Source: Clostridia bacterium | GTDB taxonomy: Bacteria; Bacillota; Clostridia; UMGS1883; UMGS1540 | Direction: 5' to 3' | Assembly: GCA_045533905.1 (NCBI GenBank) | Contig: JAZSIR010000003.1 | Coordinates: forward strand, 28,976-92,975 | Length of the DNA stretch: 64,000 bases | Part shown: positions 6,991 through 20,170 of the stretch, piece after piece | Layout of the letters: the number at the start of each line of letters is the position of its first letter | Numbering within the stretch: the stretch's first letter is position 1 | Made by a program: the position numbers and the translations under genes | The notes under the pieces: generated by a model | The model's input: the letters and a program-made list of their open reading frames with translations, nothing else | Told to the model about the DNA's origin: nothing | Database searches by the model: none

Positions 6991-6995
6991 AAAAA

Positions 6996-7036
6996 CGGCC
7001 ACTGCAGTTTTCTATGTAAACTGCAGTGGTTTTCTT
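6996..7036 (+). terminator. Rho-independent terminator after the SNF transporter gene
   Basis: 12-bp perfect stem CCACTGCAGTTT / AAACTGCAGTGG with a 7-nt loop, followed by TTTTCTT. Confidence 0.7.
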
Positions 7037-7129
7037 ATGTAAAAACCGCTAAAAAACAGCAAAAGAATCTATTTTTTTTGCGCAATCCGTCTTTTTTTGA
7101 AGAAAAAGAATTTTTCTTGCAAAAAAGAC

Positions 7130-7158
7130 TTGATAATTTTTTAACAATGTGGTATAAA
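7130..7158 (+). promoter_or_regulatory. Putative promoter for ldh, and possibly for the whole hdr/flx/sdh operon
   Basis: TTGATA, a 17-nt spacer, and an extended -10 TGgTATAAA in an AT-rich intergenic region. Confidence 0.5.
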
Positions 7159-7209
7159 GTATATAGAAAAATAGGTTTTACAACAAGAAATTGAAGGAAG
7201 GGCAGCACT

Positions 7210-8157
7210 ATGAGTAAGATTACCATCATCGGGGCCGGAAGCGTCGGCGCCACCATCGCGTACACCATTTCCGCAGAGAACTTGGCATCGGAAATTGTAC
7301 TTATCGACATCAACAAAAAGAAAGCGGGCGGGGAAGTGCTCGACATTATGCAGGGCACAAGCTTCCGCGATTCTATTTCCATTTCCTCGGGCGATTATGA
7401 AGATGCCGTGGGGTCTGACATTGTAATTATTACTTCGGGCATTGCAAGAAAACCGGGGCAGACCCGCATCGACCTTGCGCAGACGAATGTAAACATTATC
7501 AAAGAGATTGCACCGAAGATTGCGGCGGCCGCACCGAATGCCACGTATATTATCGTAAGCAATCCCGTAGATATTATCACATATGTATTTATGAAGAAAT
7601 CGGGGCTTCCTGAAAACCAGATTCTGGGCTCCGGCACCATGCTCGACACTTCGCGTCTTCGTCATGCGCTTGCCGAGCATTTCGGTGTAGCGCAGAGAGG
7701 CGTGCATGCGTACGTATTCGGCGAACACGGTGACACAGGCTTTGTACCGTGGACAAACGCGCGCATTTCCGTTACGGGTGTAGAGGAATACGCAGCACTT
7801 GCCCGTGCCTGCGGGGATGACATTCCGCCGCTCGATACGGCACAGATTGAAGACCGCGTCCGCAAATCCGGTGGCACGATTATTGAAGGTAAGGGTGCTA
7901 CGTATTACGCAGTTGCGATGAGCGTATGCCGCCTTTGCAGCGTTATCGGGGCAGAAAAGAGCTCCATCGCCACCGTGTCTACTATGATGCACGGCGAATA
8001 TGACCTTGAGGATGTTTGCCTCAGCGTTCTTACCCGCGTAGGGCGCGGCAAGGTTATCGGTCGCCTGCCCATTCCGCTTTCAGACGAAGAGTATGAAAAG
8101 CTCCACAAGAGTGCAAACGCGCTGAAGAATGTAATCAGTCAGTTGGATCTTTCCTAA
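7210..8157 (+). CDS. ldh: L-lactate dehydrogenase (NAD-dependent)
   Basis: KITIIGAGSVGATIAY Rossmann motif, LIDINKKKAGGEVLD, IVSNPVDI, and the catalytic His region GEHGD. Length 315 aa. Confidence 0.9.
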   Translation: MSKITIIGAGSVGATIAYTISAENLASEIVLIDINKKKAGGEVLDIMQGTSFRDSISISSGDYEDAVGSDIVIITSGIARKPGQTRIDLAQTNVNIIKEIAPKIAAAAPNATYIIVSNPVDIITYVFMKKSGLPENQILGSGTMLDTSRLRHALAEHFGVAQRGVHAYVFGEHGDTGFVPWTNARISVTGVEEYAALARACGDDIPPLDTAQIEDRVRKSGGTIIEGKGATYYAVAMSVCRLCSVIGAEKSSIATVSTMMHGEYDLEDVCLSVLTRVGRGKVIGRLPIPLSDEEYEKLHKSANALKNVISQLDLS

Positions 8158-8177
8158 AAAAGAGAGGGTGAAAAACG

Positions 8178-8966
8178 ATGAAATACAGCTACTATCCCGG
8201 TTGTACGCTGCGCACAAAGGCAAAAGACCTTGATGCATATGCAAGAAAATCGGCAGAGGCCTTAGGGTTTACTCTGGAAGAAATTGAAGATTGGCAGTGC
8301 TGTGGCGGCGTGTATCCTTTGGGCACAGATGAAATCGCCTCGAAGCTTTCATCTGTACGCGCACTCGCGGCCGCGCGCGATAAAAATGAGCCGATTGTTA
8401 CGCTTTGTTCCGCTTGCCATCATGTGCTCGTGCGCGTGAATGACGATATGAAGAACGTGCCGAAAATCCGTGACGCGGCAAACCGCTACATGGGGCTTGA
8501 CGTACCGTACACAGGTGAAACCGAAGTGCTCCATTTTCTCGAAGTGCTTCGCGATAAGATTGGGTTTGACGAACTTTCCAAAAAGGTCGTAAATCCCCTA
8601 AAGGATAAGAAAATCGGCGCCTACTATGGTTGCCTTCTCCTTCGTCCCGGTCAGGTTTTGCAGTTTGACGATCCCGAAAACCCCACGATTATTGAAGATT
8701 TTATTCGCGCTATCGGCGCTACGCCTGTTTCTTACAGCATGCGCAACGAATGTTGCGGCGGCTATGCTTCTTTACGAGATGGCGAACGCGCAAAGGATAT
8801 GTGCGAAACGATTATGGAAAATGCAGAAGGGTTTGGCGCCGAAATGCTCATTACCGCCTGCCCGCTTTGCATGTACAACTTAAATAAATCGGAGCGCCTT
8901 CCGGTATACTACTTTACCGAACTTCTCGCCGAGGCGCTCGGCGTAAAGGAGGCGGCGCTTTCATGA
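8178..8966 (+). CDS. hdrB: Heterodisulfide reductase subunit B-like protein with two CCG domains
   Basis: Two Cys-rich CCG domains: C...CCGG...CSACHH and C...CCGG...CPLCMYN. It starts only 20 nt after the ldh stop, with no terminator between them. Confidence 0.85.
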   Translation: MKYSYYPGCTLRTKAKDLDAYARKSAEALGFTLEEIEDWQCCGGVYPLGTDEIASKLSSVRALAAARDKNEPIVTLCSACHHVLVRVNDDMKNVPKIRDAANRYMGLDVPYTGETEVLHFLEVLRDKIGFDELSKKVVNPLKDKKIGAYYGCLLLRPGQVLQFDDPENPTIIEDFIRAIGATPVSYSMRNECCGGYASLRDGERAKDMCETIMENAEGFGAEMLITACPLCMYNLNKSERLPVYYFTELLAEALGVKEAALS

Positions 8967-9352
8967 ACAAGACGGAAAAACAGGTAGAAAGAATTCGTGA
9001 AATCAGCGGCGTAAATCCGTATAAGTGCATGAAGTGCGGCAAGTGCTCCGCCACATGCCCCTCTTACGATGCCATGGATATAAAGCCGCATCAGTTTGTT
9101 TCGTACGTGCTTCGCGGTGACGTGGAGGCGCTGGCGAAATCCAAATCGCTGTATGCTTGCCTTGCCTGCTTTGCCTGCGTGGAGCGCTGCCCGCGAAACG
9201 TAGAGCCGGCAAAGCTTATCGATGCCGCACGCCAGATGGTGGTGCGCACGAGGGGCGAAGAAGGCCTCTCGCCTGACGAAATTCCCGCACTTTTAGACGA
9301 AAAGACACCACAGCAGCTACTTGTGAGTGCCTTCAGAAGATACAGGAGGTGA
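8963..9352 (+). CDS. hdrC: Heterodisulfide reductase subunit C-like ferredoxin with 2x[4Fe-4S]
   Basis: CMKCGKCSATCP and CLACFACVERCP motifs. ATGA overlap with hdrB. Confidence 0.85.
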   Translation: MNKTEKQVERIREISGVNPYKCMKCGKCSATCPSYDAMDIKPHQFVSYVLRGDVEALAKSKSLYACLACFACVERCPRNVEPAKLIDAARQMVVRTRGEEGLSPDEIPALLDEKTPQQLLVSAFRRYRR

Positions 9353-9358
9353 GGAAAG

Positions 9359-11347
9359 GTGCAGAGAGTTGGCGTATTTGTTTGCCATTGTGGCAGTAAC
9401 ATCGCTGCAACGGTAGACGTTAAACGTGTAGTAGAAGAAGTAAAGAAAGAACAGGGCGTTGTGCATGCGGAGGATTATCCGTACATGTGCTCGGAAGCAG
9501 GGCAGGCCATCATTGCCGCCGCGATCCGTGAAAAGAAATTAAGCGGTATCGTCGTATGCTCCTGCTCGCCGCGTATGCATGAAGCTACCTTCAGAAAAGC
9601 GGCAGAGCGTGCAGGGCTGAACCCCTACATGGTCGAAATCGCAAATATCCGCGAGCACTGCTCCTGGATTCATAAGGATATGGAAGAGGCAACGGAGAAG
9701 GCAGTGATTCTTGCCCGTGCCGCGATTGCCAAGGTGCATTTGAATTCCCATCTTACCCCGGGCGAGAGCCTCGTAACAAAGCGTGCCCTCGTAATCGGCG
9801 GCGGTATTGCCGGTATTCAGACGGCAATCGATATTGCCGAAGCCGGCTACAAGGTGGATATCGTGGAAAAGACGCCTTCCATCGGCGGCAAAATGAGTCA
9901 GCTTGACAAAACGTTCCCCACGCTCGACTGCTCCGCCTGTATTCTTACCCCGAAAATGGTGGAAGCTGCGGCGCATCCCAATATCACGATTTACACCTAT
10001 AGCGAAGTGGAAAAGGTTTCGGGCTTTGTGGGTGACTTTACGGTCGATATCCGCAAAAAAGCCAGAAGCGTAGATATCAATAAATGTACAGGCTGCGGTC
10101 TTTGTCAGGAAAAATGCCCTTCTAAAAAGGCAAAGAGCGAATTTAACCAAGGTCTTTCCACAAGAAGCGCAATTTACACGCCGTTTGCACAGGCAATTCC
10201 GAATGTGCCGGTTATCGATCGCGAAAGCTGCGTGAAGTTTAAAACCGGCAAGTGCGGTCTTTGCGAAAAGATTTGTCAGGCCGGCGCGATTGACTATACA
10301 CAAAAGGATGAAATTTTCTCTGAAAAGTACGGCGCAATTGTAGTTGCCACAGGCTTTGACACAATTAAGCTTGATAACTACGGCGAATATGCTTATAATG
10401 AAAGCCCCGATGTTATCACCTCACTCGAACTCGAGCGCATCATGAATGCGGCAGGCCCCACAAAGGGACATCTCGAACGCCTTTCGGACGGCAAGCACCC
10501 CCACGAAATCGTATTTATTCAGTGCGTAGGCAGCCGCTGTGATGACCATAGAGGGAAGCCCTACTGCTCTAAAATCTGCTGTATGTACACAGCAAAGCAC
10601 GCCATGCTCATCCGCGATAAGTATCCGGATGTAAATGTAACGGTATTTTATATCGACGTGCGTACCCCCGGCAAAAACTTCGATGAGTTTTACCGCCGCG
10701 CCGTGGAGGAATACGGTGTAAATTATATCAAGGGTCAGGTCGGCAAGGTTGTTCCCCAGCCGGACGGCAGCCTTTTAGTGCAAGGCTCCGACCTTCTCGA
10801 TAACCGCCAGATTAAAATGCGCGCGGATATGGTTGTGCTTGCAACGGCAATTGAACCGAACGCTTCGGTTCGTAAGATTGCCACACAGCTTACCGCAAGC
10901 ATCGATACGAATAACTTCTTAACGGAAGCCCACCCGAAGCTTCGCCCCGTAGAATCGCCGACAGCCGGCGTATTCCTCTCCGGCGTATGTCAGGGTCCGA
11001 AGGACATTCCGGAAACCGTTTCGCAGGCAGGTGCCGCGGCGGTTAAGGTTATCGGTTTACTTGCAAAAGATAAGCTTCTCACAAACCCCTGCACCGCAAA
11101 GTCGGATATTCTCCTTTGTAACGGTTGCTCGGTTTGCCAAAATGTTTGCCCCTACGGTGCAATCAGCTATGAAGATAAGGAAGTCAATGACCACGGCATC
11201 CGTGAAACGAGACGTGTTGCGGTTGTAAACGGTGCGCTCTGCCAGGGCTGTGGCGCCTGTACCGTAGCTTGTCCGTCGGGTGCGATGGATCTTCAGGGCT
11301 TCTCAAACAGACAAATTCTTGCGGAGGTGGATGCGATATGTCGGTAG
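9359..11347 (+). CDS. hdrA: Heterodisulfide reductase subunit A-like FAD/Fe-S protein
   Basis: N-terminal Cys cluster VCHCGSN, FAD-binding motif VIGGGIAGIQTAIDIAEAGYKV, inserted ferredoxin domains CTGCGLCQEKCP and CGLCEKICQAG, and C-terminal CNGCSVCQNVCP / CQGCGACTVACP. GTG start after AGGAGGTG. Confidence 0.85.
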   Translation: MQRVGVFVCHCGSNIAATVDVKRVVEEVKKEQGVVHAEDYPYMCSEAGQAIIAAAIREKKLSGIVVCSCSPRMHEATFRKAAERAGLNPYMVEIANIREHCSWIHKDMEEATEKAVILARAAIAKVHLNSHLTPGESLVTKRALVIGGGIAGIQTAIDIAEAGYKVDIVEKTPSIGGKMSQLDKTFPTLDCSACILTPKMVEAAAHPNITIYTYSEVEKVSGFVGDFTVDIRKKARSVDINKCTGCGLCQEKCPSKKAKSEFNQGLSTRSAIYTPFAQAIPNVPVIDRESCVKFKTGKCGLCEKICQAGAIDYTQKDEIFSEKYGAIVVATGFDTIKLDNYGEYAYNESPDVITSLELERIMNAAGPTKGHLERLSDGKHPHEIVFIQCVGSRCDDHRGKPYCSKICCMYTAKHAMLIRDKYPDVNVTVFYIDVRTPGKNFDEFYRRAVEEYGVNYIKGQVGKVVPQPDGSLLVQGSDLLDNRQIKMRADMVVLATAIEPNASVRKIATQLTASIDTNNFLTEAHPKLRPVESPTAGVFLSGVCQGPKDIPETVSQAGAAAVKVIGLLAKDKLLTNPCTAKSDILLCNGCSVCQNVCPYGAISYEDKEVNDHGIRETRRVAVVNGALCQGCGACTVACPSGAMDLQGFSNRQILAEVDAICR

Positions 11348-11775
11348 AAAAAGAATTTAGACCTAAAATCGTTGCATTCTGCTGTAACTGGTGCAGCTAT
11401 GCAGGCGCAGACCTTGCCGGCAGCAGCCGCCTTGCCTACCCTGCAGATGTAAAAATCATTCGTGTGCCCTGCTCGTGCAGAGTCAACCCCATGTTCATTT
11501 TGCGCGCATTCGAAAAAGGGGCCGACGGTGTAATCCTTTGCGGTTGCCACCCGGGCGACTGCCACTATTCCACCGGTAACTATTACGCCAGAAGAAGAAT
11601 GACGCTTCTCTTCTCTCTTCTCGACTATCTCGGCGTAGAAGAAGGCCGCACCCGTGTAGAATGGGTTTCTGCGGCAGAGGGCGTGAAGTTCTCTGAGACG
11701 ATGAACGAATTTGTAGAAAAAATCCGTTCCCTCGGCGAAAATGTAAGATTGGGGGATTTACGATGCAAAAATTAG
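11338..11775 (+). CDS. mvhD: MvhD-like [2Fe-2S] electron-transfer protein, the FlxD equivalent
   Basis: FCCNWCSYAGAD...VPCSCRVNP...ILCGCHPGDCHY, the MvhD fold. The start was moved to an internal ATG with a GGAGG RBS, and it overlaps the hdrA 3' end. Confidence 0.8.
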   Translation: MSVEKEFRPKIVAFCCNWCSYAGADLAGSSRLAYPADVKIIRVPCSCRVNPMFILRAFEKGADGVILCGCHPGDCHYSTGNYYARRRMTLLFSLLDYLGVEEGRTRVEWVSAAEGVKFSETMNEFVEKIRSLGENVRLGDLRCKN

Positions 11776-12737
11776 TAAGCCGCGCAAAAGCGCTTCTTTC
11801 GGACGGCACCGTCGCGCGCGTACTCGGCTGGAAAAATGGCGACCTTGGCACAAACCCCGAACCCGCCTTCTTTGAAAGCGAAGATGCGCTGAGAGATTTT
11901 GTATACGATGCCTTTTGCGGCGCAAATTTATCGAAATATTTAATTGAAGCTTCCAAAAAGGAAGGAAAAACGCTTGTGTTCTTAAAGCCGTGCGACACGT
12001 ATAGCGCAAACCAGCTTTTAAAGGAACACAGAGTCTCGCGCGATAAGATTTATGTTATCGGCGTAGGCTGCAATGGTAAAATCAGCGCGGAAAAAATCCG
12101 TGAAAAAGGCATTCGCGGCATCGAAAAGGTAGAAGGCACAGATGCTTTTGCACCTTTGGAAACTTTAAAGGTGCAAACGATTTACGGCGAATGCGAGGTA
12201 GCATATAACGATGTGATGCTCGAGCGTTGCCACGTATGTAAAGGCAAAGAGCATAAGATTTATGATGAAATTATCGGCGAAAGCCGCGACACCTGTGACC
12301 GCGACCGCATGGAGCGCGTACGCGAGATTGAAAAAATGTCGCCGGCAGAAAAATTCGCCTTTTTCCAGAGCGAGCTTTCCCGCTGCATCCGCTGCAATGC
12401 TTGCCGCAACGTATGCCCTGCCTGCAGCTGCAGAAAGTGCGTGTTTGACAGCACAAAGTTTGATAGCGCACAGAAAGCAAACGCGGATTCCTTCGAAGAA
12501 AAAATGTTCCACGTTATCCGCGCATTCCACGTGGCGGGCCGTTGTACCGACTGCGGCGAGTGCAGCCGCGTTTGTCCCCAAAACATTCCGCTTCACCTTT
12601 TTAACCGTAAGCTCATCGGGGATATAAACGAGTTTTACGGCGAATATCAGGCGGGCGAGGATGCAGAAACCGTAGGTCCGCTTACCGCCTTCACCGAGGG
12701 CGACATGGAACCTTCGGAAGCCAGAGAAAGGAGATAG
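11763..12737 (+). CDS. Fe-S oxidoreductase subunit, FlxC-like, with a 4Fe-4S dicluster domain
   Basis: CIRCNACRNVCPACSC and CTDCGECSRVCPQN motifs. It is translationally coupled to mvhD upstream and to the AsrA-like gene downstream. Confidence 0.65.
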   Translation: MQKLVSRAKALLSDGTVARVLGWKNGDLGTNPEPAFFESEDALRDFVYDAFCGANLSKYLIEASKKEGKTLVFLKPCDTYSANQLLKEHRVSRDKIYVIGVGCNGKISAEKIREKGIRGIEKVEGTDAFAPLETLKVQTIYGECEVAYNDVMLERCHVCKGKEHKIYDEIIGESRDTCDRDRMERVREIEKMSPAEKFAFFQSELSRCIRCNACRNVCPACSCRKCVFDSTKFDSAQKANADSFEEKMFHVIRAFHVAGRCTDCGECSRVCPQNIPLHLFNRKLIGDINEFYGEYQAGEDAETVGPLTAFTEGDMEPSEARERR

Positions 12738-12741
12738 CCGC

Positions 12742-13770
12742 ATGAAAAAGATTGAAAAAGCAAAGCTTTCCGCGCTTTTCGCCGCTATTTCCGAGGAAGC
12801 AAGCTTGATTCTCCCTGTAAAGGAAGGCAGCGAAACAAACTTCGGTCTCTGGAGCGCGGAAGCAGAAGTAGATCTCGACACACTCAAAACCGTAAAATCG
12901 GCAAAAGACGCCTTCTTCCCGCAGTGCGAAACGCTCTACACCTGCCACAAGGAAGACGGGCACCTTCGCATCACGCCGGGCGAGAGAATGGACGAAGATT
13001 TTGTTCTCTTCGGCGTGCGCGCCTGCGATGCCCGCGGCTTTGAAGTGCTCGACCGTGTATTTCTCACGGACCCCGTAGACTCCTTCTATAAAGCCAGAAG
13101 AGAGCACGGCACCGTGGTCTCGATGGCGTGCACAAGACCGGAAGAAACATGTTTTTGTACGACTTTTGGGATTGACAGCGCCGAAGGGGGCGCCGATGTC
13201 GATACGATTTTTGTAGGCGATGCGCTCTACTGGAAAGCAAACACCGAAAAGGGCGAAGCGCTCACCTCTCGTCTTTCCGCACTTTTTGAGGATGCAGACG
13301 AAGCCGCGGCCGAAGGCACAAAAGAAGAAATTCGCGCCATTATGAAGAAGCTCCCGTATGCCGACCTTACAACGGAAGGCTGGGGCGGCGCGGAAGAAAA
13401 AGAAAAGTTCGATTCTCCCCTTTGGGAAGAACTCTATAAGCCGTGCCTTGCGTGCGGTACCTGCACCTTTGTGTGCCCGACCTGCCAGTGCTATGATATT
13501 AAGGACTATACAACCGGAAACGGCGTACAGCGCTATCGCTGCTGGGATTCCTGCATGTATTCCGACTTTACCATGATGGCACACGGCAATAACCGTACAA
13601 GCCAGATGCAGCGCTTCCGTCAGCGCTTTATGCACAAACTCATGTATTATCCGAAGAATAATGACGGTCTCTTCTCCTGCGTAGGCTGCGGCCGATGCGT
13701 AGAGAAGTGTCCGCAGGGTCTTAATATCGCAAAAGTTATGCGCGCGTTTTCGCAGAAGGAGGGTAAGTAA
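12742..13770 (+). CDS. Fe-S subunit similar to anaerobic sulfite reductase subunit A and sulfhydrogenase beta; FlxB-like
   Basis: C-terminal region CLACGTCTFVCPTCQCYD...RYRCWDSCMYSDFTMMAHGN...CVGCGRCVEKCPQG. It is collinear with the AsrA/HydB cysteine pattern. Confidence 0.7.
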   Translation: MKKIEKAKLSALFAAISEEASLILPVKEGSETNFGLWSAEAEVDLDTLKTVKSAKDAFFPQCETLYTCHKEDGHLRITPGERMDEDFVLFGVRACDARGFEVLDRVFLTDPVDSFYKARREHGTVVSMACTRPEETCFCTTFGIDSAEGGADVDTIFVGDALYWKANTEKGEALTSRLSALFEDADEAAAEGTKEEIRAIMKKLPYADLTTEGWGGAEEKEKFDSPLWEELYKPCLACGTCTFVCPTCQCYDIKDYTTGNGVQRYRCWDSCMYSDFTMMAHGNNRTSQMQRFRQRFMHKLMYYPKNNDGLFSCVGCGRCVEKCPQGLNIAKVMRAFSQKEGK

Positions 13771-13772
13771 AA

Positions 13773-14627
13773 ATGTGTGAATGCAATTGCCATGAAAACT
13801 ATACGGAAGACACGCTTATCCCGAAGGTAGGTATTATTACGGATATCCGCACGGAAACGCCGGATGTAAAAACCTTCCGCGTCAATGCCCCCGAGGGCGG
13901 CAAGCTTTTTGAGCATATGCCGGGGCAGTGCGCCATGCTTTGTGCACCGGGCGTTTCGGAAGCGATGTTTTCGATTACTTCTTCGCCCACAAATCGTGAA
14001 TTTCAAGAATTCAGCATTAAAAAGTGCGGCGAGCTTACCGATTATCTCCATAGCCTTACGGTGGGCGACGAAATTACCGTACGCGGACCGTACGGTAACC
14101 ATTTCCCCGTAGAAACAGAGCTCCGCGGGAAAAACCTTCTGTTTATTGCCGGCGGTATCGGTCTTGCGCCGCTCCGCTCCGTTATAAATTACGTACTCGA
14201 TAACCGCGAAAATTACGGCACAGTCGATATTTTATACGGTTCCCGTTCGTCGGCAGACCTTGTACAGCTGAAAGAAATTCAGGAAGTCTGGGCGAAGACT
14301 GCGGGCGTTAACGTATATCTCACAATCGACCGCGAGGAGGAAGGCTGGGACGGCCACGTAGGCTTCGTACCGGCATACCTGAAGGAAATCGGTTTTTCCA
14401 CGGATAAGACGGCACTACTTTGCGGTCCCCCCATTATGATTAAGTTCGTACTTGCGGCACTTATGGAAATGGGCTTTTCCAAAGAGCAGGTATATACCAC
14501 ACTCGAGCTTCGTATGAAGTGCGGCGTCGGCAAGTGCGGCCGATGCAATATCGGTACCCAATACGTCTGCATAGACGGTCCGGTATTCCGCTGCGACGAA
14601 ATCGACGAAATGCCAAACGAGTATTAA
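13773..14627 (+). CDS. FAD/NAD(P)H-binding oxidoreductase with a C-terminal [2Fe-2S]; similar to AsrB and sulfhydrogenase gamma; FlxA-like
   Basis: Ferredoxin-NADP reductase-like fold (RGPYGNHF, LLFIAGGIGLAPL) and a C-terminal CGVGKCGRCNIGTQYVCIDGPVF. Confidence 0.75.
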   Translation: MCECNCHENYTEDTLIPKVGIITDIRTETPDVKTFRVNAPEGGKLFEHMPGQCAMLCAPGVSEAMFSITSSPTNREFQEFSIKKCGELTDYLHSLTVGDEITVRGPYGNHFPVETELRGKNLLFIAGGIGLAPLRSVINYVLDNRENYGTVDILYGSRSSADLVQLKEIQEVWAKTAGVNVYLTIDREEEGWDGHVGFVPAYLKEIGFSTDKTALLCGPPIMIKFVLAALMEMGFSKEQVYTTLELRMKCGVGKCGRCNIGTQYVCIDGPVFRCDEIDEMPNEY

Positions 14628-14645
14628 GAGAGGAGCGAAAAAGAG

Positions 14646-15320
14646 ATGGAAAAAATGGTTAACGTATACTTTTTCGGTAAAAAATACAGTGTACCGGCAG
14701 ACCTTACGATTATGACGGCTATGGAATATGCCGGCTATACCCTCAAAAGAGGTTGCGGTTGCCGTCACGGTTTCTGCGGCGCCTGCGCCACAATTTACCG
14801 CATTAAGGGTAAAAATGAACTGAAAACCTGTCTGGCCTGCCAGACGCAGGTGGAAGAGGGCATGTACATTGCAAGCATCCCGTTCTTCCCGACAGATAAG
14901 AGAACGTACGATATAGGGGAAGTACGTCCCGACCAGCGCGTGATGATGGAGCTGTACCCCGAAATTTACAGCTGTATCGGCTGTAACGCCTGTACAAAGG
15001 CCTGTACACAGAGCCTCTCCGTTATGCAGTACATTGCATACGCCCAGCGCGGCGAATTCGAAAAGTGCGCAGAAGAATCGTTTGACTGCGTAGGCTGCGG
15101 CTGCTGCAGCGTTCGCTGCCCCGCAGGCATCTCCCACCCGATGGTAGGTCTTCTTTCGCGCCGTCTTGTGGGCAAATACATCGCCCCCCGCGCAGAGCAT
15201 CTTAAAAACCGCGTAGACGAAATCAACCACGGTGAGCACGATGCCCTTATCGAGCAGATCATACAAAAACCGATCGCGGAAATGCAGGAACTGTATAACA
15301 CCAGAGACATTGAGAAGTAG
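14646..15320 (+). CDS. Succinate dehydrogenase / fumarate reductase iron-sulfur subunit-like protein (SdhB/FrdB family) with no membrane anchor
   Basis: N-terminal [2Fe-2S] motif CGCRHGFCGACA, then CIGCNACTKACT and CVGCGCCSVRCPAG cluster motifs. Length 224 aa. Confidence 0.65.
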   Translation: MEKMVNVYFFGKKYSVPADLTIMTAMEYAGYTLKRGCGCRHGFCGACATIYRIKGKNELKTCLACQTQVEEGMYIASIPFFPTDKRTYDIGEVRPDQRVMMELYPEIYSCIGCNACTKACTQSLSVMQYIAYAQRGEFEKCAEESFDCVGCGCCSVRCPAGISHPMVGLLSRRLVGKYIAPRAEHLKNRVDEINHGEHDALIEQIIQKPIAEMQELYNTRDIEK

Positions 15321-15334
15321 GAGGGAGAAAGGTT

Positions 15335-16933
15335 ATGTTTACAGCTGAAATGCTCGAATCTATCAAAAAGGTAGAAGCCACAAGAGCGGAGCGTATGAAA
15401 ACCGAGCCGAGAAGAATGACGGCTGAGGAAAAAGACGAGCTCCTGCGCGCCTATCACCCGGACTACCGTGCAGACGGGTTTGATGAAATTTTAGTCGGCC
15501 CGAATAGAGGCGAAAAGGCTCCGAAGGAACTCGCAGGCCTTCTCCATTCCAACAGCCGCATCCTTGGAGTAGATATTGATTTAAACAAAGTCGATTATGA
15601 CGTAGACGTTCTCGTTATCGGCGGCGGCGGCGCAGGCTCTTCTGCGGCGATTGAAGCCCATGAAGCGGGTGCCAATGTTATGATCGTTACAAAGCTTCGC
15701 ATCGGCGATGCAAACACTATGATGGCAGAAGGCGGCATTCAGGCGGCCGATAAGGAAAATGACTCTCCCGCACAGCATTATCTCGATGCTTTCGGCGGCG
15801 GTCACTTTGCGGCCCGTCCCGAACTTCTTCGCCGTCTCGTTATGGAAGCACCTGATGCAATCCGCTGGCTGAATGACCTTGGCGTTATGTTCGATAAGGA
15901 CAAAGACGGCCGCATGGTCACCACCCACGGCGGTGGTACTTCGAGAAAGAGAATGCGCGCCTGCAAGGACTATTCCGGTGCAGAAATCATGCGCACCCTT
16001 CGCGACGAAGTTATTAACCGCGGCATTCCGGTAGTGGAATTCACTTCCGCAGTAGAACTTATCAAAGACGATAAGGGGCAGGTAGCCGGTGCTGTTCTTA
16101 TGAATATGGAAACGGAGGATTACCTCGTAGCACGCGCCAAAACCGTTGTTATTGCAACGGGTGGTGCAGGCCGTCTCCATTACCAGAACTTCCCCACCTC
16201 AAACCACTACGGCGCCACAGCTGACGGTCTCGTCCTCGGCTACCGCGCAGGCGCACCGCTTCTTTATCAGGATACTATTCAGTACCACCCGACAGGCGTT
16301 GCCTATCCGTCCCAGATTTTCGGCGCTCTCGTTACCGAAAAGGTACGTTCCCTTGGCGCAATGCTTGTAAACCGTGACGGTGAAGCCTATGCCCATCCGC
16401 TCGAAACGCGTGACGTTTCCGCATCCGCCATTATCCGCGAATGTGCCAATGGAAAAGGCGTAGAAACACCTTTGGGCAGCGGCGTTTGGCTCGATACCCC
16501 GATGATTGAAATCCTCGGCGGCGAAGGTACAATCGAAAAGCGTATTCCGGCAATGATGCGTATGTACTTAAACTACGGCATCGATATGCGCAAAGTGCCG
16601 ATTCTCGTTTACCCCACGCTGCATTACCAAAACGGCGGTCTTGAAATCGGCGGCGAAGGCTACACGAAAGCCATCCCGAACCTTCTCGTAGCCGGCGAAG
16701 CCGTAGGCGGCATCCACGGCAGAAACCGCCTCATGGGTAACTCTCTCCTCGACATTATTGTATTCGGCAGAAACGCCGGTAAGGCGGCCGCAAAACGTGC
16801 AGGGGAAGTTACACTTGGCGAGATGAATCTTGACCATGTAAATGCATACGCAGAAGAACTTTCGAAGAAAGGCCTCGGCGGCGAAGCTGTTTCTCCGCTC
16901 CTTCTGCCGAAGTATGCACGGCACGAAAGATAA
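15335..16933 (+). CDS. FAD-dependent fumarate reductase / succinate dehydrogenase flavoprotein-like subunit (FrdA/SdhA/NadB superfamily), soluble
   Basis: VLVIGGGGAGSSAAIEA dinucleotide fold, MMAEGGIQAA (non-covalent FAD type, with no His), the HPTG substrate motif, and GRNRLMGNSLLD. It carries an unusual N-terminal extension of about 90 aa. Confidence 0.7.
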   Translation: MFTAEMLESIKKVEATRAERMKTEPRRMTAEEKDELLRAYHPDYRADGFDEILVGPNRGEKAPKELAGLLHSNSRILGVDIDLNKVDYDVDVLVIGGGGAGSSAAIEAHEAGANVMIVTKLRIGDANTMMAEGGIQAADKENDSPAQHYLDAFGGGHFAARPELLRRLVMEAPDAIRWLNDLGVMFDKDKDGRMVTTHGGGTSRKRMRACKDYSGAEIMRTLRDEVINRGIPVVEFTSAVELIKDDKGQVAGAVLMNMETEDYLVARAKTVVIATGGAGRLHYQNFPTSNHYGATADGLVLGYRAGAPLLYQDTIQYHPTGVAYPSQIFGALVTEKVRSLGAMLVNRDGEAYAHPLETRDVSASAIIRECANGKGVETPLGSGVWLDTPMIEILGGEGTIEKRIPAMMRMYLNYGIDMRKVPILVYPTLHYQNGGLEIGGEGYTKAIPNLLVAGEAVGGIHGRNRLMGNSLLDIIVFGRNAGKAAAKRAGEVTLGEMNLDHVNAYAEELSKKGLGGEAVSPLLLPKYARHER

Positions 16934-16948
16934 ATAAAAAAGTAAGAC

Positions 16949-16977
16949 GGGCGAAACTGTAAAAAACGGTTTCGCCC
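16949..16977 (+). other. Stable hairpin with no U-tract between the sdhA-like gene and the transporter gene
   Basis: GGGCGAAAC / GTTTCGCCC, a 9-bp stem with a loop of about 10 nt. No T-run follows it. Confidence 0.4.
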
Positions 16978-17011
16978 ACAAGTCTGTAATCTTGGAAAGG
17001 TAGGAAGGAAA

Positions 17012-18283
17012 ATGACTCTGTTTGGCGGCGTAATTCCTGTAAACGGGATTACCTTTTTGATGTTTTGTGTATTTGTGATTGCGGCAGTGGGCTATGCGCT
17101 CGGTCGCATTACGATAAAAGGTGTAAACCTCGGCACAGCAGGCGTATTTATCGTAGCGCTTTTGTTTGGTTGCTTTTTCTTTGCACCGCTTTCGGCCCAG
17201 CTTCCGAATTATACGGATAAGGCGCTGAAAATCATTGAAAATTTAGGCCTTATTTTGTTTGTAACGTCCGTTGGCTTTATTGCAGGGCCGAAATTCTTCA
17301 GCAATATGAAGAAAAACTTTAAGTCCTATGTATTTTTAGGCATCTTGATTATTTTGGCAGGCGGTCTTTCCGCGGTAGCTTGCATCTACCTTGGCGAAGT
17401 GTTTGGCTACGGTGCTACCATCGAAACACGCGAAGGCTTTGTGGCGATGATTGTCGGTCTTCTTTCCGGCTCTCTTACTTCCACTCCCGCCTTTTCCGCC
17501 GCAAAAGACACCGTTTTGCCGGAGTTTGAAAGCCTCGTATCCGTCGGTCACGGCATTGCGTACATATTCGGCGTTTTGGGCGTAGTCCTGTTTGTACAGC
17601 TGATTCCGAAAATGTGCCGCGCCAATATGGACGAGGAAAGAGCAAAGCTCACCGCCGTTTCCGATGGCGAAGCGAAGAAAGAATACAAAGGCAAGCTCAT
17701 TCATCTTGATGGCTTCGGCTTTGGTGCGTTTGCCCTCGCTGCGATTTTGGGCGTTTTGGTTGGTATGATTAAAATTCCGCTTACGGGCGCAGGCTATGCC
17801 TCTCTCGCTGCAGGCGAAGGCATAAAGGGCACAGCGTTTTCCCTCACCACTACGGGCGGTTGCCTTTTAATGTCCCTCGTATTCGGGCATTTCGGCAGAG
17901 CCGGTCGCATTTCCTTAATGCCCCAGGAATCTACACTCAAGGTTTTCCGTGAGCTTGGTCTTATGCTTTTCTTAATCGGCGCAGGTATCCCGGGCGGCGC
18001 AGAATTCGTTGCGAATTTTGACCCCATGTATTTCGTATACGGCGTAATTATGACAATTGTGCCGATGCTTGTCGGCTACTTCTTTGCAAAGTATGTACTG
18101 AAGCTCAGCCTTCTCAATAACCTCGGTTCCATCACGGGCGGTATGACATCTACCCCGGCGCTCGGCACGCTTATCAACACCGCCGGCACAGAAGCCGTAG
18201 CCGCCGCCTACGCCGCAACATACCCGATTGCGCTCATTGCCGTTGTGCTTGTATCGCAGTTTTTGATTATTTTATTTAAATAA
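17012..18283 (+). CDS. AAE-family (AspT/YidE/SucE-like) transporter, putatively a C4-dicarboxylate / succinate exchanger
   Basis: 423-aa polytopic membrane protein with duplicated Asp-Al_Ex-like halves (GTAGVF...; ITGGMTSTPALG). It lacks the TrkA_C inserts. Confidence 0.55.
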   Translation: MTLFGGVIPVNGITFLMFCVFVIAAVGYALGRITIKGVNLGTAGVFIVALLFGCFFFAPLSAQLPNYTDKALKIIENLGLILFVTSVGFIAGPKFFSNMKKNFKSYVFLGILIILAGGLSAVACIYLGEVFGYGATIETREGFVAMIVGLLSGSLTSTPAFSAAKDTVLPEFESLVSVGHGIAYIFGVLGVVLFVQLIPKMCRANMDEERAKLTAVSDGEAKKEYKGKLIHLDGFGFGAFALAAILGVLVGMIKIPLTGAGYASLAAGEGIKGTAFSLTTTGGCLLMSLVFGHFGRAGRISLMPQESTLKVFRELGLMLFLIGAGIPGGAEFVANFDPMYFVYGVIMTIVPMLVGYFFAKYVLKLSLLNNLGSITGGMTSTPALGTLINTAGTEAVAAAYAATYPIALIAVVLVSQFLIILFK

Positions 18284-18295
18284 AGGAGAAAAACA

Positions 18296-19138
18296 ATGCG
18301 TGAAATTTCTGTAAGCCTTGTTACCGATACCGTAGAAAAGCTTTGCATCGACGCGAACAATCACCTTCCCGAAGATGTAAAGTGTGCCATTTGCGACTGT
18401 CGCGCGAAAGAAGACGGCGAAATTGCAAAAGGCGTTCTCGATAACATCATTGAAAACTTTGAAATTGCGGACCGCGAAAATGTACCGATTTGTCAGGATA
18501 CCGGCATGGCCTGCGTGTTCCTTGAAATCGGGCAGGATGTACACTTTGTGGGCGGCGACCTTTCCGAAGCCATTCACGAAGGCGTACGTCGCGGCTATGA
18601 TAAAGGCTATCTTCGTAAATCCGTTGTAAAAGATCCCGTTCGCCGCGGCAACACCGGCGATAACACCCCCGCGATGATTTACACAGAAATCGTACCGGGC
18701 GAAAACGTAAAAATCACTGTAGGCCCGAAGGGCTTCGGCAGCGAAAATATGAGCCGCATTTGCATGTTCAAGCCGTCCCACGGCATTGAAGGTATTAAGA
18801 ACTTCATTTTGGAAACCGTTGAAATTGCGGGGCCGAACCCCTGCCCGCCGATGGTTGTGGGCGTTGGTATCGGCGGCACATTCGATAAGGCCGCACTTCT
18901 TGCAAAGAAGGCACTTATGCGCCCCATCGATTCTGAAAACCCCGACCCGTATTATGCCGACCTTGAAAAGGAAATGCTCGAAAAAATCAACGAGCTCGGC
19001 ATCGGGCCCCAGGGCTTTGGCGGCAGAACCACCGCAATCGGGCTCAATATCGAAACGATGCCCACGCACATTGCAGGTATGCCGTGCGCTATCAACATTA
19101 ACTGCCACGTAACGCGGCATAAAACGGAGGTGCTCTAA
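18296..19138 (+). CDS. Class I Fe-S hydro-lyase alpha subunit (fumarate hydratase FumA N-terminal / tartrate dehydratase TtdA family)
   Basis: 280 aa, with VPICQDTGMA and GGTFDKAA motifs of the Fe-S L-hydro-lyase alpha family. Confidence 0.8.
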   Translation: MREISVSLVTDTVEKLCIDANNHLPEDVKCAICDCRAKEDGEIAKGVLDNIIENFEIADRENVPICQDTGMACVFLEIGQDVHFVGGDLSEAIHEGVRRGYDKGYLRKSVVKDPVRRGNTGDNTPAMIYTEIVPGENVKITVGPKGFGSENMSRICMFKPSHGIEGIKNFILETVEIAGPNPCPPMVVGVGIGGTFDKAALLAKKALMRPIDSENPDPYYADLEKEMLEKINELGIGPQGFGGRTTAIGLNIETMPTHIAGMPCAININCHVTRHKTEVL

Positions 19139-19139
19139 T

Positions 19140-19697
19140 ATGGCCAGAAAAATTACATTGCCCCTTACAGAGGAGCTTGCAAAAACTTTAAAGGCCGGTG
19201 ACGAAGTTCTTTTAACCGGTACCATTTACACTTCCCGCGATGCCGGCCATAAGCGTATGTGCGAAGCACTCGCACGCGGCGAGGAATTGCCGTTTGACCC
19301 GAAGGATGCCACGATCTACTACGTAGGCCCCACGCCCGCAAAGCCGGGTCAAGTTATCGGCTCTGCAGGTCCCACCACAAGCGGCAGAATGGACGCCTAT
19401 GCGCCTACGATGATGCGTGTCGGCGCACGCGGCATGATTGGTAAGGGCGCACGCCTTCCTGAAGTAGTGGATGCAATGCGCGAAAATGCAGGGGTATACT
19501 TTGGCGCTATCGGCGGCGCAGGTGCGCTTTTAGCCAAATGCATTAAGAGCGCAGAACTGATTGCCTATGAGGATTTAGGGGCAGAAGCGCTTCGCAAACT
19601 CTACGTAGAAGATATGCCGCTTGTAGTCATTATTGACAGCGAAGGCACCAATTTGTACGAAAAAGGAAGGGAAGCTTACCTCGCTTCCAGAAAATAG
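19140..19697 (+). CDS. Class I Fe-S hydro-lyase beta subunit (fumarate hydratase / tartrate dehydratase beta)
   Basis: 185 aa, with the beta-subunit signature GTIYTSRDAGHKRM...GPTTSGRMD. Confidence 0.8.
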   Translation: MARKITLPLTEELAKTLKAGDEVLLTGTIYTSRDAGHKRMCEALARGEELPFDPKDATIYYVGPTPAKPGQVIGSAGPTTSGRMDAYAPTMMRVGARGMIGKGARLPEVVDAMRENAGVYFGAIGGAGALLAKCIKSAELIAYEDLGAEALRKLYVEDMPLVVIIDSEGTNLYEKGREAYLASRK

Positions 19698-19740
19698 TTG
19701 TGTATTTTGTACAAAAATTAAACAATTTTCGGCAAAAGTA

Positions 19741-19769
19741 TTGAAATTATGCCAAAAAGGTGATAGAAT
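19741..19769 (+). promoter_or_regulatory. Promoter for hup
   Basis: TTGAAA, a 17-nt spacer, TAGAAT. An AAAGGAAAGGAG RBS follows. Confidence 0.55.
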
Positions 19770-19804
19770 GACAATATGAATGAAAAAGGAAAGGAGTGAA
19801 TGAA

Positions 19805-20077: not shown

Positions 20078-20091
20078 GATACAGGCAAAAA

Positions 20092-20131
20092 AGAAGCTTC
20101 TCCACGTGTGGAGAAGCTTCTTCTCGTTTTT
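20092..20131 (+). terminator. Rho-independent terminator of hup
   Basis: Perfect 14-bp stem AGAAGCTTCTCCAC/GTGGAGAAGCTTCT followed by TCTCGTTTTT. Confidence 0.8.
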
Positions 20132-20170
20132 GCGGTGTTTTTCGAAAATGAACAGACTAAGACAAATATT

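Follow-up and report, generated by a model that had tools for sequence, protein, structure and literature searches.

Whether a soluble fumarate reductase-like enzyme can be supplied with electrons by an adjacent Hdr/Flx module, and whether ferredoxin might be reduced in the same reaction, is the question raised by a gene cluster in a 64,000-nt stretch of a Clostridia genome, referred to here as the window. The cluster comprises 13 co-directional genes on the + strand (7210–19697) in the order LDH-family, hdrB, hdrC, hdrA, mvhD/flxD, flxC, flxB, flxA, frdB, frdA, AAE transporter and a two-subunit class I fumarase. The initial annotation had counted twelve; the genes it listed all lie on the + strand where it had placed them, and Pfam and NCBIfam agree with its assignments. 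With moderate confidence, we read the cluster as a 'succinate operon' that would encode the complete reductive route from oxaloacetate to succinate, including its export, linked to Hdr/Flx and bifurcating.

Boundaries and conservation of the cluster

The cluster is a real operon. Upstream, a strong bidirectional terminator-like hairpin (6997–7031; a 14-bp stem, then a T-rich tail on both strands) appears to close the SNF-transporter gene and to insulate the operon. The promoter annotated at 7130 is readable as TTGATA–17 nt–TATAAA with a TGn extension (7130–7158, + strand), a promoter-like site purely by consensus match. The tight packing described earlier holds for junctions with overlaps of 4–13 nt or gaps of 1–20 nt, but the frdA–transporter gap measures 78 nt and carries a stable RNA hairpin (16945–16985, + strand; 12+4 bp, without a T tract) of –25.1 kcal/mol (z –5.19), which 0/200 shuffles equalled in folding. 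The cluster had also been described as free of internal terminators; strong terminator-like hairpins indeed occur only outside it (6997–7031 and 20091–20122). The T-tract-free hairpin nevertheless lies between frdA and the genes for the transporter and fumarase, so transcription as one unit cannot be taken for granted. The first strong downstream hairpin (20091–20122, + strand; 14-bp stem) follows an HU gene, which has its own promoter-like site at 19741–19769.

Co-conservation of the hdr/flx and frd genes in relatives, on which the initial annotation had staked its proposal, is observed: all related loci with enough sequence for an assessment (56/56), from Oscillospiraceae, Acutalibacteraceae, Lachnospiraceae, Christensenella and Anaerovoracaceae, share a colinear nine-gene core, hdrBCA-mvhD-flxCBA-frdBA, so the clustering is not due to chance. 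The mapping of 80 gut-clade loci was confined to homologues of genes from the window, and for nine more diverse contexts all neighbouring genes were listed. The core genes keep the same order in Pyramidobacter (Synergistota). In Proteinivorax the cluster is rearranged but complete and adjoins a DcuC carrier gene, and a rearranged cluster in Anoxynatronum adjoins a non-homologous class II fumarase gene; both neighbours would represent independent links to C4-dicarboxylates. Desulfovirgula has hdrC-hdrB-frdB-frdA alone with no visible electron-input module, and in Bathyarchaeota and Asgard archaea frdBA is combined with hdr genes and with different modules for electron input. As frdBA is also found with a NuoF-like protein gene in Gammaproteobacteria, with ETF and acyl-CoA dehydrogenase genes in WOR-3, and alone, Hdr is not obligatory for it.

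The Hdr/Flx module and the proposed routes of its electrons

HdrB (8178–8966) carries two complete CCG motifs (PF02754 twice), the C...CCG...CxxC pattern occurring twice in the sequence, and matches 7bkb_B and 5odc_B over nearly its whole length (E 1e-31 to 1e-29); its top NCBIfam matches are the SdhE (MFR) and HdrB models, with SdhE at 148 bits against a cut-off of 500. It is followed by an HdrC-like subunit with 2x[4Fe-4S] (8963–9352; Fer4_8/Fer4_17 and HdrC NCBIfam models) and by HdrA (9359–11347), the canonical bifurcating flavoprotein with FAD and multiple [4Fe-4S] clusters, which matches the solved bifurcating HdrA 5odc_A end to end (residues 3–660, E 1.4e-200). The HdrA2 NCBIfam model gives 795 bits, the NCBIfam matches of HdrA, HdrB, HdrC and FrdA all lying under the curated cut-offs. 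The MvhD/FlxD-like [2Fe-2S] connector (11338–11775; PF02662 FlpD, E 4e-55) starts with ATG 11338, which lies within the mechanical ORF 11269–11775. The FlxC-like Fe-S protein (11763–12737; Fer4_8, weak PF04432) combines a weakly FrhB_FdhB_C-like N-terminal part with a dicluster domain, and its counterparts in Pyramidobacter and Asgard archaea have PF04432 (FrhB_FdhB_C) matches on record. The module ends with a FlxB-like Fe-S protein of AsrA/HydB type (12742–13770; Fer4_22, E 8e-31; ShyB/HydB/AsrA NCBIfam models) and a FlxA-like NAD(P)H:FAD:[2Fe-2S] entry subunit of AsrB/HydG type (13773–14627; FAD_binding_6, NAD_binding_1 and DHODB_Fe-S_bind).

As in the methanogen MvhAGD-HdrABC and Fdh-Hdr-Fmd complexes (PDB 5odc, 7bkb, 8rvu), HdrA is present end to end together with HdrB, HdrC and MvhD, and the core bifurcating at the HdrA FAD is therefore complete. 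By comparison, the electron input in the window is the Flx NAD(P)H module rather than a hydrogenase or formate dehydrogenase, and the electrons are proposed to end, through FrdBA, on fumarate rather than on CoM-S-S-CoB. FlxA would oxidise NAD(P)H, and the electrons would travel by way of FlxB/FlxC and MvhD to the HdrA FAD, where HdrA would send the high-potential electron through HdrC, the CCG non-cubane clusters of HdrB, FrdB and the FrdA FAD to fumarate, while the low-potential electron would leave via the HdrA ferredoxin domains to ferredoxin. The net reaction would be 2 NADH + fumarate + Fd(ox) → 2 NAD+ + succinate + Fd(red, 2 e–), which is thermodynamically allowed by the textbook potentials of NADH (–320 mV), fumarate/succinate (about +30 mV, E0') and ferredoxin (about –450 mV). 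Judged from its sequences, the Hdr/Flx module is probably NADH-oxidising and ferredoxin-reducing. If so, the reduced ferredoxin could drive Rnf or a hydrogenase, and fumarate reduction would conserve energy without a quinone.

The gene content, the domain and cofactor motifs, the catalytic residues and the co-conservation are direct observations, and they support the core of the initial annotation, in which Flx-Hdr feeds a soluble FrdAB with attached fumarate supply and succinate export, although its details on LDH, SdhB and novelty needed correction. From them we infer complex formation, direct HdrB-to-FrdB transfer, NADH as the donor and bifurcation, the last solely because HdrA is present. 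Comparative genomics lends good support to the bifurcating NADH:fumarate/ferredoxin reading.

NADH-driven fumarate reduction is strongly exergonic by itself, and Hdr/Flx might serve just to wire NAD(P)H oxidation to FrdBA, with all electrons going to fumarate and no ferredoxin reduced. Soluble NADH-dependent fumarate reductases do exist, such as the five-subunit Hydrogenobacter thermophilus enzyme cited in PMC13147460, and the gammaproteobacterial frdBA is paired with a plain NuoF-like NADH module. We nevertheless consider such a wire unlikely, as a full-length HdrA with all its ferredoxin-type domains is kept with MvhD in 56/56 loci, which would be costly for this purpose. To our knowledge, every biochemically characterised HdrA-MvhD system is bifurcating, which also speaks against a simple conduit. 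Furthermore, H2 inhibits succinate formation in Pseudoclostridium thermosuccinogenes, which fits ferredoxin coupling (PMC7282089).

Alternatively, instead of a single wired complex there could be two enzymes coupled by a thiol: Flx-HdrABC would reduce a disulfide, as has been proposed for DsrC in Desulfovibrio, and a TfrAB-like FrdBA with HdrBC would re-oxidise the thiol with fumarate. TfrA is the best NCBIfam match of FrdA, FrdB, HdrC and HdrB jointly tile the TfrB profile (positions 19–88, 121–218 and 263–477), HdrB keeps all Cys of the disulfide-reducing clusters, and the Desulfovirgula arrangement would suit such a shuttle. However, each cluster has one hdrB/hdrC pair, so one CCG site would have to serve the carrier in both directions, reducing and re-oxidising it, and no thiol-carrier or DsrC-like gene was found in the nine diverse contexts with fully listed neighbours. 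Nor, as far as we know, do Clostridia make CoM/CoB. In addition, type E succinate:quinone reductases and methylmenaquinol:fumarate reductase contain CCG proteins that work with no thiol substrate, and their SdhE is the top model match of HdrB. On balance, a shuttle seems to us quite improbable.

FrdBA and the C4-dicarboxylate genes

In the bifurcating reading, FrdBA would be a soluble, quinone-independent fumarate reductase that yields succinate with electrons from the adjacent Hdr/Flx proteins. FrdA (15335–16933; FAD_binding_2, E 6e-68) is a soluble TfrA/FrdA-like flavoprotein whose predicted structure (AF2 pLDDT 93) has E. coli FrdA (1kf6_A) as its best fold match. The substrate motifs noted in the initial annotation are present, and H318-P-T, E335, R338, H430 and R465 show no variation among 93 clade members; the odd N-terminal extension is likewise present, conserved and about 88 aa long. 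The domain and motif check of FrdA found no Succ_DH_flav_C domain and no covalent-FAD His, and we predict a non-covalent-FAD flavoprotein with the full set of fumarate-site residues. FrdB (14646–15320) was described as SdhB-like. The resemblance is loose: the domain plan, in which an N-terminal [2Fe-2S] domain is combined with a helical 2x[4Fe-4S] one, is shared, but the final cluster motif reads CxxCxxCxxxCP in full, HdrC ranks first among the structural matches, and sequence profiles yield generic ferredoxins only; the FrdB model has moderate inter-domain confidence (pTM 0.62). FrdB is expected to carry one [2Fe-2S] and two [4Fe-4S] clusters, with neither FrdA nor FrdB predicted to be membrane-anchored. 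In 9/9 diverse contexts, and in all gut-clade loci whose sequence extends upstream of frdA, the two genes are adjacent, and in P0123 they are fused, suggesting that their products form one enzyme.

FrdA reaches the cut-off of no curated model, NadB models score only moderately under the SdhA/FrdA models (256 vs 279–331 bits), there is a good alignment with solved NadB structures (1knp, TM 0.71), and the WOR-3 context hints at other pathways for some clade members. Yet an L-aspartate oxidase or another unsaturated-acid reductase, with fumarase and transporter genes as coincidental neighbours, is very unlikely, because the Fe-S partner is always adjacent and sometimes fused, both carboxylate-binding His/Arg pairs are invariant, and frdA is found in linkage with class I fumarase here, class II in Anoxynatronum, DcuC in Proteinivorax and the Arg102 MDH in most loci. 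The window cluster and the nine fully listed contexts contain no nadA/nadC; an L-aspartate oxidase, which the initial annotation had named among the findings that would overturn its proposal, is not indicated by score or context.

The first gene (7210–8157; Ldh_1_N/Ldh_1_C) encodes an LDH-family NAD-dependent 2-hydroxyacid dehydrogenase, predicted mdh, whose IARKPGQTR motif puts Arg at LDH specificity position 102, occupied by Gln in bona fide LDHs. Arg102 is found in 46/46 operon-linked homologues read, and Q102R is reportedly the classical LDH-to-MDH switch described by Wilks et al. in 1988. The product, annotated before as L-LDH, is most likely a malate dehydrogenase, so that the pathway would run from oxaloacetate through malate and fumarate to succinate. 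A true L-LDH, with Hdr/Flx serving lactate/pyruvate electrons in a LutABC- or Ldh/Etf-like manner that has nothing to do with fumarate, can practically be set aside: the LDH equivalog TIGR01771 scores above its cut-off (319 vs 303.55 bits), the nearest solved structures are deposited as L-LDHs, and CCG/Fe-S proteins act in lactate utilisation, with weak LutA/LutB and LdhH model matches here, but position 102 is Arg, not Gln, throughout the genes read, and the LDH-family gene, upstream in 45/53 loci, is absent from 8/53, whereas hdr-flx-frd is never split.

In the 'succinate operon', malate from the dehydrogenase would be converted to fumarate by the class I fumarate hydratase, encoded by alpha (18296–19138; Fumerase PF05681, E 3e-119) and beta (19140–19697; Fumerase_C PF05683, E 4e-58) subunit genes. 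The AAE-family transporter (17012–18283; Asp-Al_Ex twice, PF06826, E 4e-57 in two stretches), a candidate succinate exporter, would release the product; the position of its gene varies among relatives.

Relation to known systems

As a hypothesis the arrangement, which the initial annotation believed to be uncharacterised in bacteria, is not new. This operon type and the bifurcation idea were already out in 2019–2020 for another Clostridium-like bacterium, P. (Hungateiclostridium) thermosuccinogenes; the paper on its 'succinate operon' (PMC7282089) refers to a preprint of Koendjbiharie & van Kranenburg from 2019. Compared by published description, its cluster unites fumarase, seven Flx-Hdr genes, a two-gene fumarate reductase and a putative succinate transporter, with NADH-dependent fumarate reduction proposed to be coupled to ferredoxin reduction; RNA-seq showed about 4-fold higher expression under CO2 limitation, not significant for every subunit (PMC7282089). 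By comparison, the window cluster adds the Arg102 LDH-family (MDH-type) gene in front and has fumarase last, its transporter belongs to the AAE family whereas the other is given as 'hypothetical protein' only, and its host is of a mesophilic animal-gut Clostridia lineage. A tfrAB/flxABCD-hdrABC link was also reported for tubeworm symbionts and Thioflavicoccus (PMC6315080), and the symbiont arrangement is discussed again, with co-expression cited, in PMC13147460. In agreement with the initial annotation, the searched literature yielded no biochemical characterisation of any member of this operon type.

The same seven protein types (HdrA, HdrB, HdrC, FlxD, two Fe-S proteins and FlxA) make up FlxABCD-HdrABC of Desulfovibrio vulgaris, as cited in PMC7282089 and PMC6315080. 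The gene order in the window is inverted (hdrBCA-flxDCBA), with frdBA, fumarase and mdh alongside. For Desulfovibrio, Ramos et al. in 2015 reportedly proposed a DsrC-type disulfide as the high-potential acceptor and described alcohol dehydrogenase genes as neighbours.

The Methanothermobacter thiol:fumarate reductase TfrAB (NF004900/NF004898) resembles the window proteins as a soluble, anchorless fumarate-reducing flavoprotein with CCG-domain chemistry. By comparison, TfrB is a single protein (2Fe-2S, dicluster and two CCG domains), the parts of which are split over FrdB, HdrC and HdrB in the window; FrdA lacks about 120 C-terminal residues of TfrA, has the extra N-terminal part, and scores far under the equivalog cut-off of this top NCBIfam match (331 vs 718 bits). 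A CoM/CoB donor is implausible in Clostridia. In type E SQR and methylmenaquinol:fumarate reductase (SdhABE; NF042965 SdhE), a CCG-domain protein likewise partners an SdhAB-type dimer, but SdhE provides attachment to the membrane and to the quinol pool, whereas the window cluster has no quinone-related or membrane subunit. The Hydrogenobacter thermophilus fumarate reductase (Miura et al. 2008, via PMC13147460) is similarly soluble, NADH-linked and multi-subunit and works in the reductive direction; compared by description, it differs in being called non-bifurcating.

Gene layout and boundaries of the operon

Thirteen consecutive genes on the + strand fill positions 7210–19697 of the window, as delineated by gene calls and identified by Pfam and NCBIfam. 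The first encodes an Ldh_1-family dehydrogenase (7210–8157) and is followed by the genes for HdrB with two CCG domains (8178–8966), HdrC (8963–9352), HdrA (9359–11347), an MvhD/FlpD protein (ATG at 11338, end at 11775), an FlxC-like Fe-S protein (11763–12737), an AsrA/HydB-like Fer4_22 protein (12742–13770) and an AsrB/HydG-like FAD/NAD(P)H/[2Fe-2S] protein (13773–14627). The remaining genes encode a 224-aa Fe-S protein, FrdB (14646–15320), a 532-aa FAD_binding_2 flavoprotein, FrdA (15335–16933), an Asp-Al_Ex (AAE) transporter (17012–18283) and the two subunits of a class I fumarase (18296–19138 and 19140–19697). Every gene type named in the initial annotation was recovered by Pfam and NCBIfam, with thirteen genes in place of the twelve it counted. 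The tight packing it described applies to junctions with overlaps of 4–13 nt or gaps of 1–20 nt, and breaks down between frdA and the transporter gene, where a 78-nt gap forms the sole long intergenic gap in the operon.

A promoter-like sequence, TTGATA-17-TGnTATAAA, is located at 7130. Strong terminator-like hairpins are found only outside the cluster, at 6997–7031 and 20091–20122, in agreement with the earlier claim that no internal terminator exists. The 78-nt gap does contain a hairpin (16945–16985; 12-bp inner stem, −25.1 kcal/mol, z −5.2), which was rejected as an intrinsic terminator because it is not followed by a T tract. The close spacing and the lack of a strong internal terminator are indirect signs that the genes may be co-transcribed. 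This hairpin could cause partial termination or attenuation, or stabilize the upstream mRNA; since the position of the transporter gene varies among relatives, it may also be the seam of an insertion. An Rfam scan of 6800–20800 matched no known RNA family. The terminator at 6997–7031 separates the operon from its upstream neighbours (4568–6990), a gene for a D-isomer-specific 2-hydroxyacid dehydrogenase and a gene for an SNF-family sodium symporter. At the downstream end, a HU gene (19796–20077) begins 98 nt past fumB and possesses its own promoter-like site from 19741 (TTGAAA-17-TGnTAGAAT). The first strong terminator after the operon, at 20091–20122, falls downstream of HU, and transcripts of the operon could continue into HU.

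Hdr, Flx and Frd subunits and the proposed electron route

The best-supported reading of the nine core genes, hdrBCA, mvhD, flxCBA and frdBA, is that they encode one wired Flx-Hdr-Frd system. Gene content, cofactor motifs, catalytic residues and co-conservation are observed directly, and from them we infer complex formation, the electron donor and bifurcation. In this arrangement, FlxA would oxidize NAD(P)H, and the electrons would travel through FlxB/FlxC and then MvhD to the FAD of HdrA. The high-potential branch would continue from HdrC through HdrB, FrdB and FrdA to fumarate, and the low-potential branch would reduce ferredoxin. With textbook potentials of −320 mV for NADH, +30 mV for fumarate and about −450 mV for ferredoxin, the reaction 2 NADH + fumarate + Fd(ox) → 2 NAD+ + succinate + Fd(red) is estimated to be exergonic by ~40 kJ/mol.

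The FlxABCD-HdrABC gene set is complete, comprising HdrA, HdrB with two CCG domains, HdrC, the MvhD-like FlxD, FlxC, FlxB and FlxA (NAD(P)H/FAD/2Fe-2S). Residues 3–660 of HdrA align to residues 5–649 of a structurally characterised bifurcating HdrA (5odc_A; E 1.4e-200), and the N-terminal, thioredoxin-reductase-like, inserted and C-terminal ferredoxin domains are all present. HdrB matches solved HdrB chains at E values of about 1e-31 and contains two complete CCG motifs (C...CCG...CxxC twice; ten Cys), with PF02754 detected in two stretches. By comparison, the NCBIfam equivalog cut-offs are not reached for HdrA2 (795 vs 1100), HdrB (135 vs 345) or HdrC (56 vs 160), indicating that these proteins are homologous to the methanogen enzyme but not that enzyme itself. 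The window system thus shares a full-length HdrA and a two-CCG HdrB with the 5odc-type bifurcating HdrABC, and differs from it in these sub-cut-off scores. The strongest rival, a non-bifurcating NADH:fumarate reductase, would dispense with the ferredoxin branch; the full-length likeness of HdrA to a bifurcating homologue favours bifurcation.

Among the curated NCBIfam models, FrdA scores best with TfrA (331 bits), followed by SdhA/FrdA (279) and NadB (256), all below their cut-offs. The match to the TfrA equivalog (331 vs 718 bits) is limited to profile positions 6–423 of 546. Aligned with E. coli SdhA, FrdA carries the catalytic set of the HPT His, Thr-Glu, the proton-donor Arg and a second His and Arg. 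Seven residues (H318, P319, T320, E335, R338, H430, R465) show no variation across 93 FrdA-clade sequences and T334 is kept in at least 90% of them, which bears out the substrate-binding HPT/R motifs attributed to the flavoprotein in the initial annotation. Asn127, also invariant in the clade, takes the alignment position of E. coli SdhA His45, the residue of the covalent 8-alpha-FAD linkage. FrdA ends ~60 aa past its FAD domain, and Succ_DH_flav_C (PF02910) gave no match in it at E ≤ 0.01. No gene for a membrane anchor subunit is present in the cluster, where the AAE transporter is the only membrane protein, consistent with the pair having been described as anchorless. FrdA therefore shares its catalytic residues with the flavoprotein of complex II (SdhA/FrdA), whereas the covalent-FAD His, Succ_DH_flav_C and the membrane anchors are missing. 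L-aspartate oxidase, previously named as the identity that would overturn the fumarate assignment, was rejected on scores and gene context: the NadB equivalog TIGR00551 is not reached (256 vs 452.75 bits), a gene for the Fe-S partner always adjoins frdA or is fused to it, and no nad genes occur in the window cluster or in nine fully listed diverse contexts.

The N-terminal extension of FrdA, earlier put at about 90 aa, comprises ~88 aa, is conserved in the clade (HPDY...GxNxG) and is predicted with pLDDT values of 90–97. The whole predicted model (pLDDT 93, pTM 0.92) has E. coli FrdA as its top fold match (1kf6_A, TM 0.72). In a representative-library search, the extension was restricted to about ten 50%-identity clusters. 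A 727-aa clade member, the database protein P0123, is a natural fusion in which the N-terminal ~220 aa correspond to an FrdB-type Fe-S protein and the remainder to an FrdA-type flavoprotein, which argues, at the level of sequence, that FrdB and FrdA are two subunits of a single enzyme.

TfrB of thiol:fumarate reductase combines 2Fe-2S, dicluster and two CCG domains in one polypeptide. This is distinct from the window, in which these elements are split over FrdB, HdrC and HdrB; no CCG-fused FrdB was found among the 120 best FrdB homologues. Fused TfrB and the type E SdhE, both among the NCBIfam matches of HdrB, are precedents for electron transfer from a CCG protein to an SdhAB-type dimer. A less likely thiol-shuttle scheme would have two enzymes in place of one wired Flx-Hdr-Frd system.

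Conservation, partners and substrate

A scan of a one-genome-per-species collection yielded at least 590 candidate stretches encoding a relative. The best 80 of these loci, with 71–92% FrdA identity, originate from animal and human guts, and their hosts are Oscillospiraceae, Acutalibacteraceae, Lachnospiraceae (Dorea, Blautia, Fusicatenibacter, Sporofaciens), Christensenella, Anaerovoracaceae and unclassified Clostridia; Pseudoclostridium thermosuccinogenes does not appear by name among these 80. When the window proteins were mapped onto the loci with enough upstream sequence, the core hdrB-hdrC-hdrA-mvhD-flxC-flxB-flxA-frdB-frdA was colinear in 56 of 56, including all seven protein types of FlxABCD-HdrABC; the co-conservation of hdr/flx with the frd genes that had been suggested as a check is therefore observed. 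The accessory genes are less constant: the Arg102 dehydrogenase gene described below lies upstream in 45 of 53 loci, fumAB lies downstream of the core in 38 of 56, and an AAE homologue is present in 37 of 56 at variable positions. Single FrdB clusters at 90% identity each hold thousands of metagenome sequences. The closest locus among the matches listed, L002 from a goat-rectum Clostridia MAG (FrdA 92% identical), has the same snf and HU flanks; within the 80 gut-clade loci, homologues of both flanking genes recur in the arrangement of the window in L002 only, and HU also in L003. FrdA proteins 71–92% identical are spread over Lachnospiraceae, Oscillospiraceae, Christensenellaceae, Anaerovoracaceae and one MAG labelled Treponema. 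Probably either the cluster is transferred horizontally as a whole or there is contamination in the bin labelled Treponema.

More distant members of the FrdA clade were read in their own contigs, in nine contexts. Pyramidobacter (Synergistota) has the nine core genes in the window order, and Proteinivorax hydrogeniformans has frdBA-hdrBCA-mvhD-flxCBA followed by a DcuC C4-dicarboxylate carrier. Anoxynatronum sibiricum shows the Proteinivorax arrangement, with a non-homologous class II fumarase in front of it and a gene of the acetyl-CoA hydrolase/transferase family behind it (L089, 17292–18788). This family, AcetylCoA_hydro, includes succinyl-CoA:acetate CoA-transferases, and the neighbour hints at further processing of succinate in this organism in place of export. 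Desulfovirgula thermocuniculi contains hdrC-hdrB-frdB-frdA only (L087, 8020–11599), with no hdrA or flx nearby, a split equivalent of TfrAB. In a Bathyarchaeota contig (L082, 744–9415), 2-oxoacid:ferredoxin oxidoreductase genes lead directly into hdrA-mvhD-hdrC-hdrB-frdB-frdA, and an Asgard archaeon (L086, 1344–11656) combines hdrCBA, a 999-aa Fe-S/flavoprotein, mvhD, an FrhB-like gene and frdBA. The Frd-Hdr link is thus old and recurrent. No Hdr accompanies the N-terminally extended frdBA beside a NuoF-like protein in Gammaproteobacteria (L083, 9330–12903), or the likewise extended frdBA of WOR-3, which has an ETF-alpha/ferredoxin pair on one side and an acyl-CoA dehydrogenase on the other (L084, 7892–12724); in GCA_902567285.1, frdA-frdB stands alone. 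The frdBA pair behaves as a module able to take other partners.

The Gammaproteobacteria and WOR-3 contexts suggest other electron donors, or even other substrates, in those lineages; for the window cluster, a flavoprotein acting on a substrate other than fumarate is an unlikely rival. For the Hdr-linked loci, fumarases of two non-homologous types and C4-dicarboxylate carriers from two unrelated families lend independent support to the fumarate link. In the window, the previously claimed AAE/SucE-type exchanger and two-subunit class I fumarase both matched their Pfam families: the adjacent fumarase genes by Fumerase (E 3e-119) and Fumerase_C (E 4e-58), and the transporter, a putative succinate exporter, by PF06826 (E 4e-57) in two stretches corresponding to the two Asp-Al_Ex membrane repeats.

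The product of 7210–8157, annotated initially as L-LDH, passes the LDH equivalog TIGR01771 (319.4 vs 303.55 bits), has its nearest solved structures deposited as L-LDHs, and carries the NAD-type Asp33 at the end of beta-2 ('LIDIN'). At specificity position 102 it has Arg (IARKPGQTR; R80), where T. maritima and other aligned LDHs have Gln, and Arg102 recurs in all 46 operon-linked homologues read. Arg at this position is the classical mark of an enzyme specific for oxaloacetate and not pyruvate, as reported from Q102R work on Bacillus LDH. The MDH HMM cut-off is not reached (217 vs 351.85), which together with Arg102 indicates an LDH-clade family with an MDH-type determinant. The L-LDH identity was rejected on Arg102, and the gene probably encodes a malate dehydrogenase, as judged from this residue. 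With such a first step, the operon would cover the route from oxaloacetate through malate and fumarate to succinate, plus export. A lactate-linked role of the cluster, to which the LDH scores point, is the weakest rival in view of Arg102.

Precedents, implications and other window genes

The functional proposal of the initial annotation was largely sound in gene content, catalytic residues and co-conservation; besides the L-LDH, its claim of novelty must be given up, as the hypothesis appears in two earlier papers (PMC7282089; PMC6315080). The "succinate operon" described in P. thermosuccinogenes has seven genes for an Flx-Hdr complex and two for a fumarate reductase, together with those for a fumarate hydratase and a putative succinate transporter, and its RNA-seq signal rose about 4-fold under CO2 limitation, not significantly for every subunit (PMC7282089, 2020). 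By published gene content, the same component list is found at 8178–19697 of the window. In tubeworm symbionts and Thioflavicoccus, tfrAB and korABCD are interspersed with flxABCD-hdrABC, and a complex was proposed (PMC6315080, 2019); this tfrAB/flx-hdr link was later restated with co-expression cited (PMC13147460, 2026). The available passages of the earlier papers do not mention that an Arg102 MDH-type gene regularly belongs to the operon, nor do they mention the FrdA N-terminal extension and its conservation, the FrdB-FrdA fusion, the minimal hdrCB-frdBA unit or the breadth of partner modules (Archaea, other phyla). The searched literature contained no report of purification or activity of an Hdr/Flx-linked fumarate reductase. 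The idea is therefore not new, and the window cluster, which is widespread and amenable to experiment, is a strong candidate for a bifurcating enzyme of a new class.

We tentatively propose, with doubt slightly outweighing confidence, that the N-terminally extended FrdAB is a portable high-potential acceptor module placed on varied input machines, and that it belongs, in hundreds of Clostridia species from gut and rumen, to one nine-subunit, quinone-free bifurcating NADH:fumarate/ferredoxin oxidoreductase. The input partners may be Hdr with Flx in Clostridia and Synergistota, Hdr with 2-oxoacid:ferredoxin oxidoreductase in Bathyarchaeota, Hdr with an FrhB-like protein in Asgard archaea, a NuoF-like protein in Gammaproteobacteria and ETF in WOR-3. 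If so, this would be a bifurcating-enzyme class without prior biochemical demonstration, fumarate would join crotonyl-CoA, heterodisulfide, pyruvate and NADP+ as high-potential acceptors driving flavin-based electron bifurcation, and Clostridia without a quinone-linked fumarate reductase would make succinate and gain energy by a fumarate "respiration" through ferredoxin and Rnf or hydrogenase. Given how common the cluster is (at least 590 stretches and thousands of metagenome FrdB sequences), it could contribute meaningfully to how succinate and hydrogen are balanced in gut and rumen ecosystems. The cluster is also of interest for bio-succinate production, and its mesophilic gut versions offer additional source organisms for the decisive biochemical work.

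Ten other window genes run against Pfam encode housekeeping functions only (GH116, Lon, SpoIIIAA, NAD kinase, RecN-like, ABC ATPases), with no Rnf, hydrogenase, PEP carboxykinase or quinone genes among these ten. The ORF at 20106–20639 (+) had no Pfam match at E ≤ 0.01, and those at 3590–4507 (+), 35810–37327 (−) and 32518–34233 (−) had none at E ≤ 1e-12. Since the last of these adjoins an ABC ATPase gene, it may encode the permease of that ATPase.
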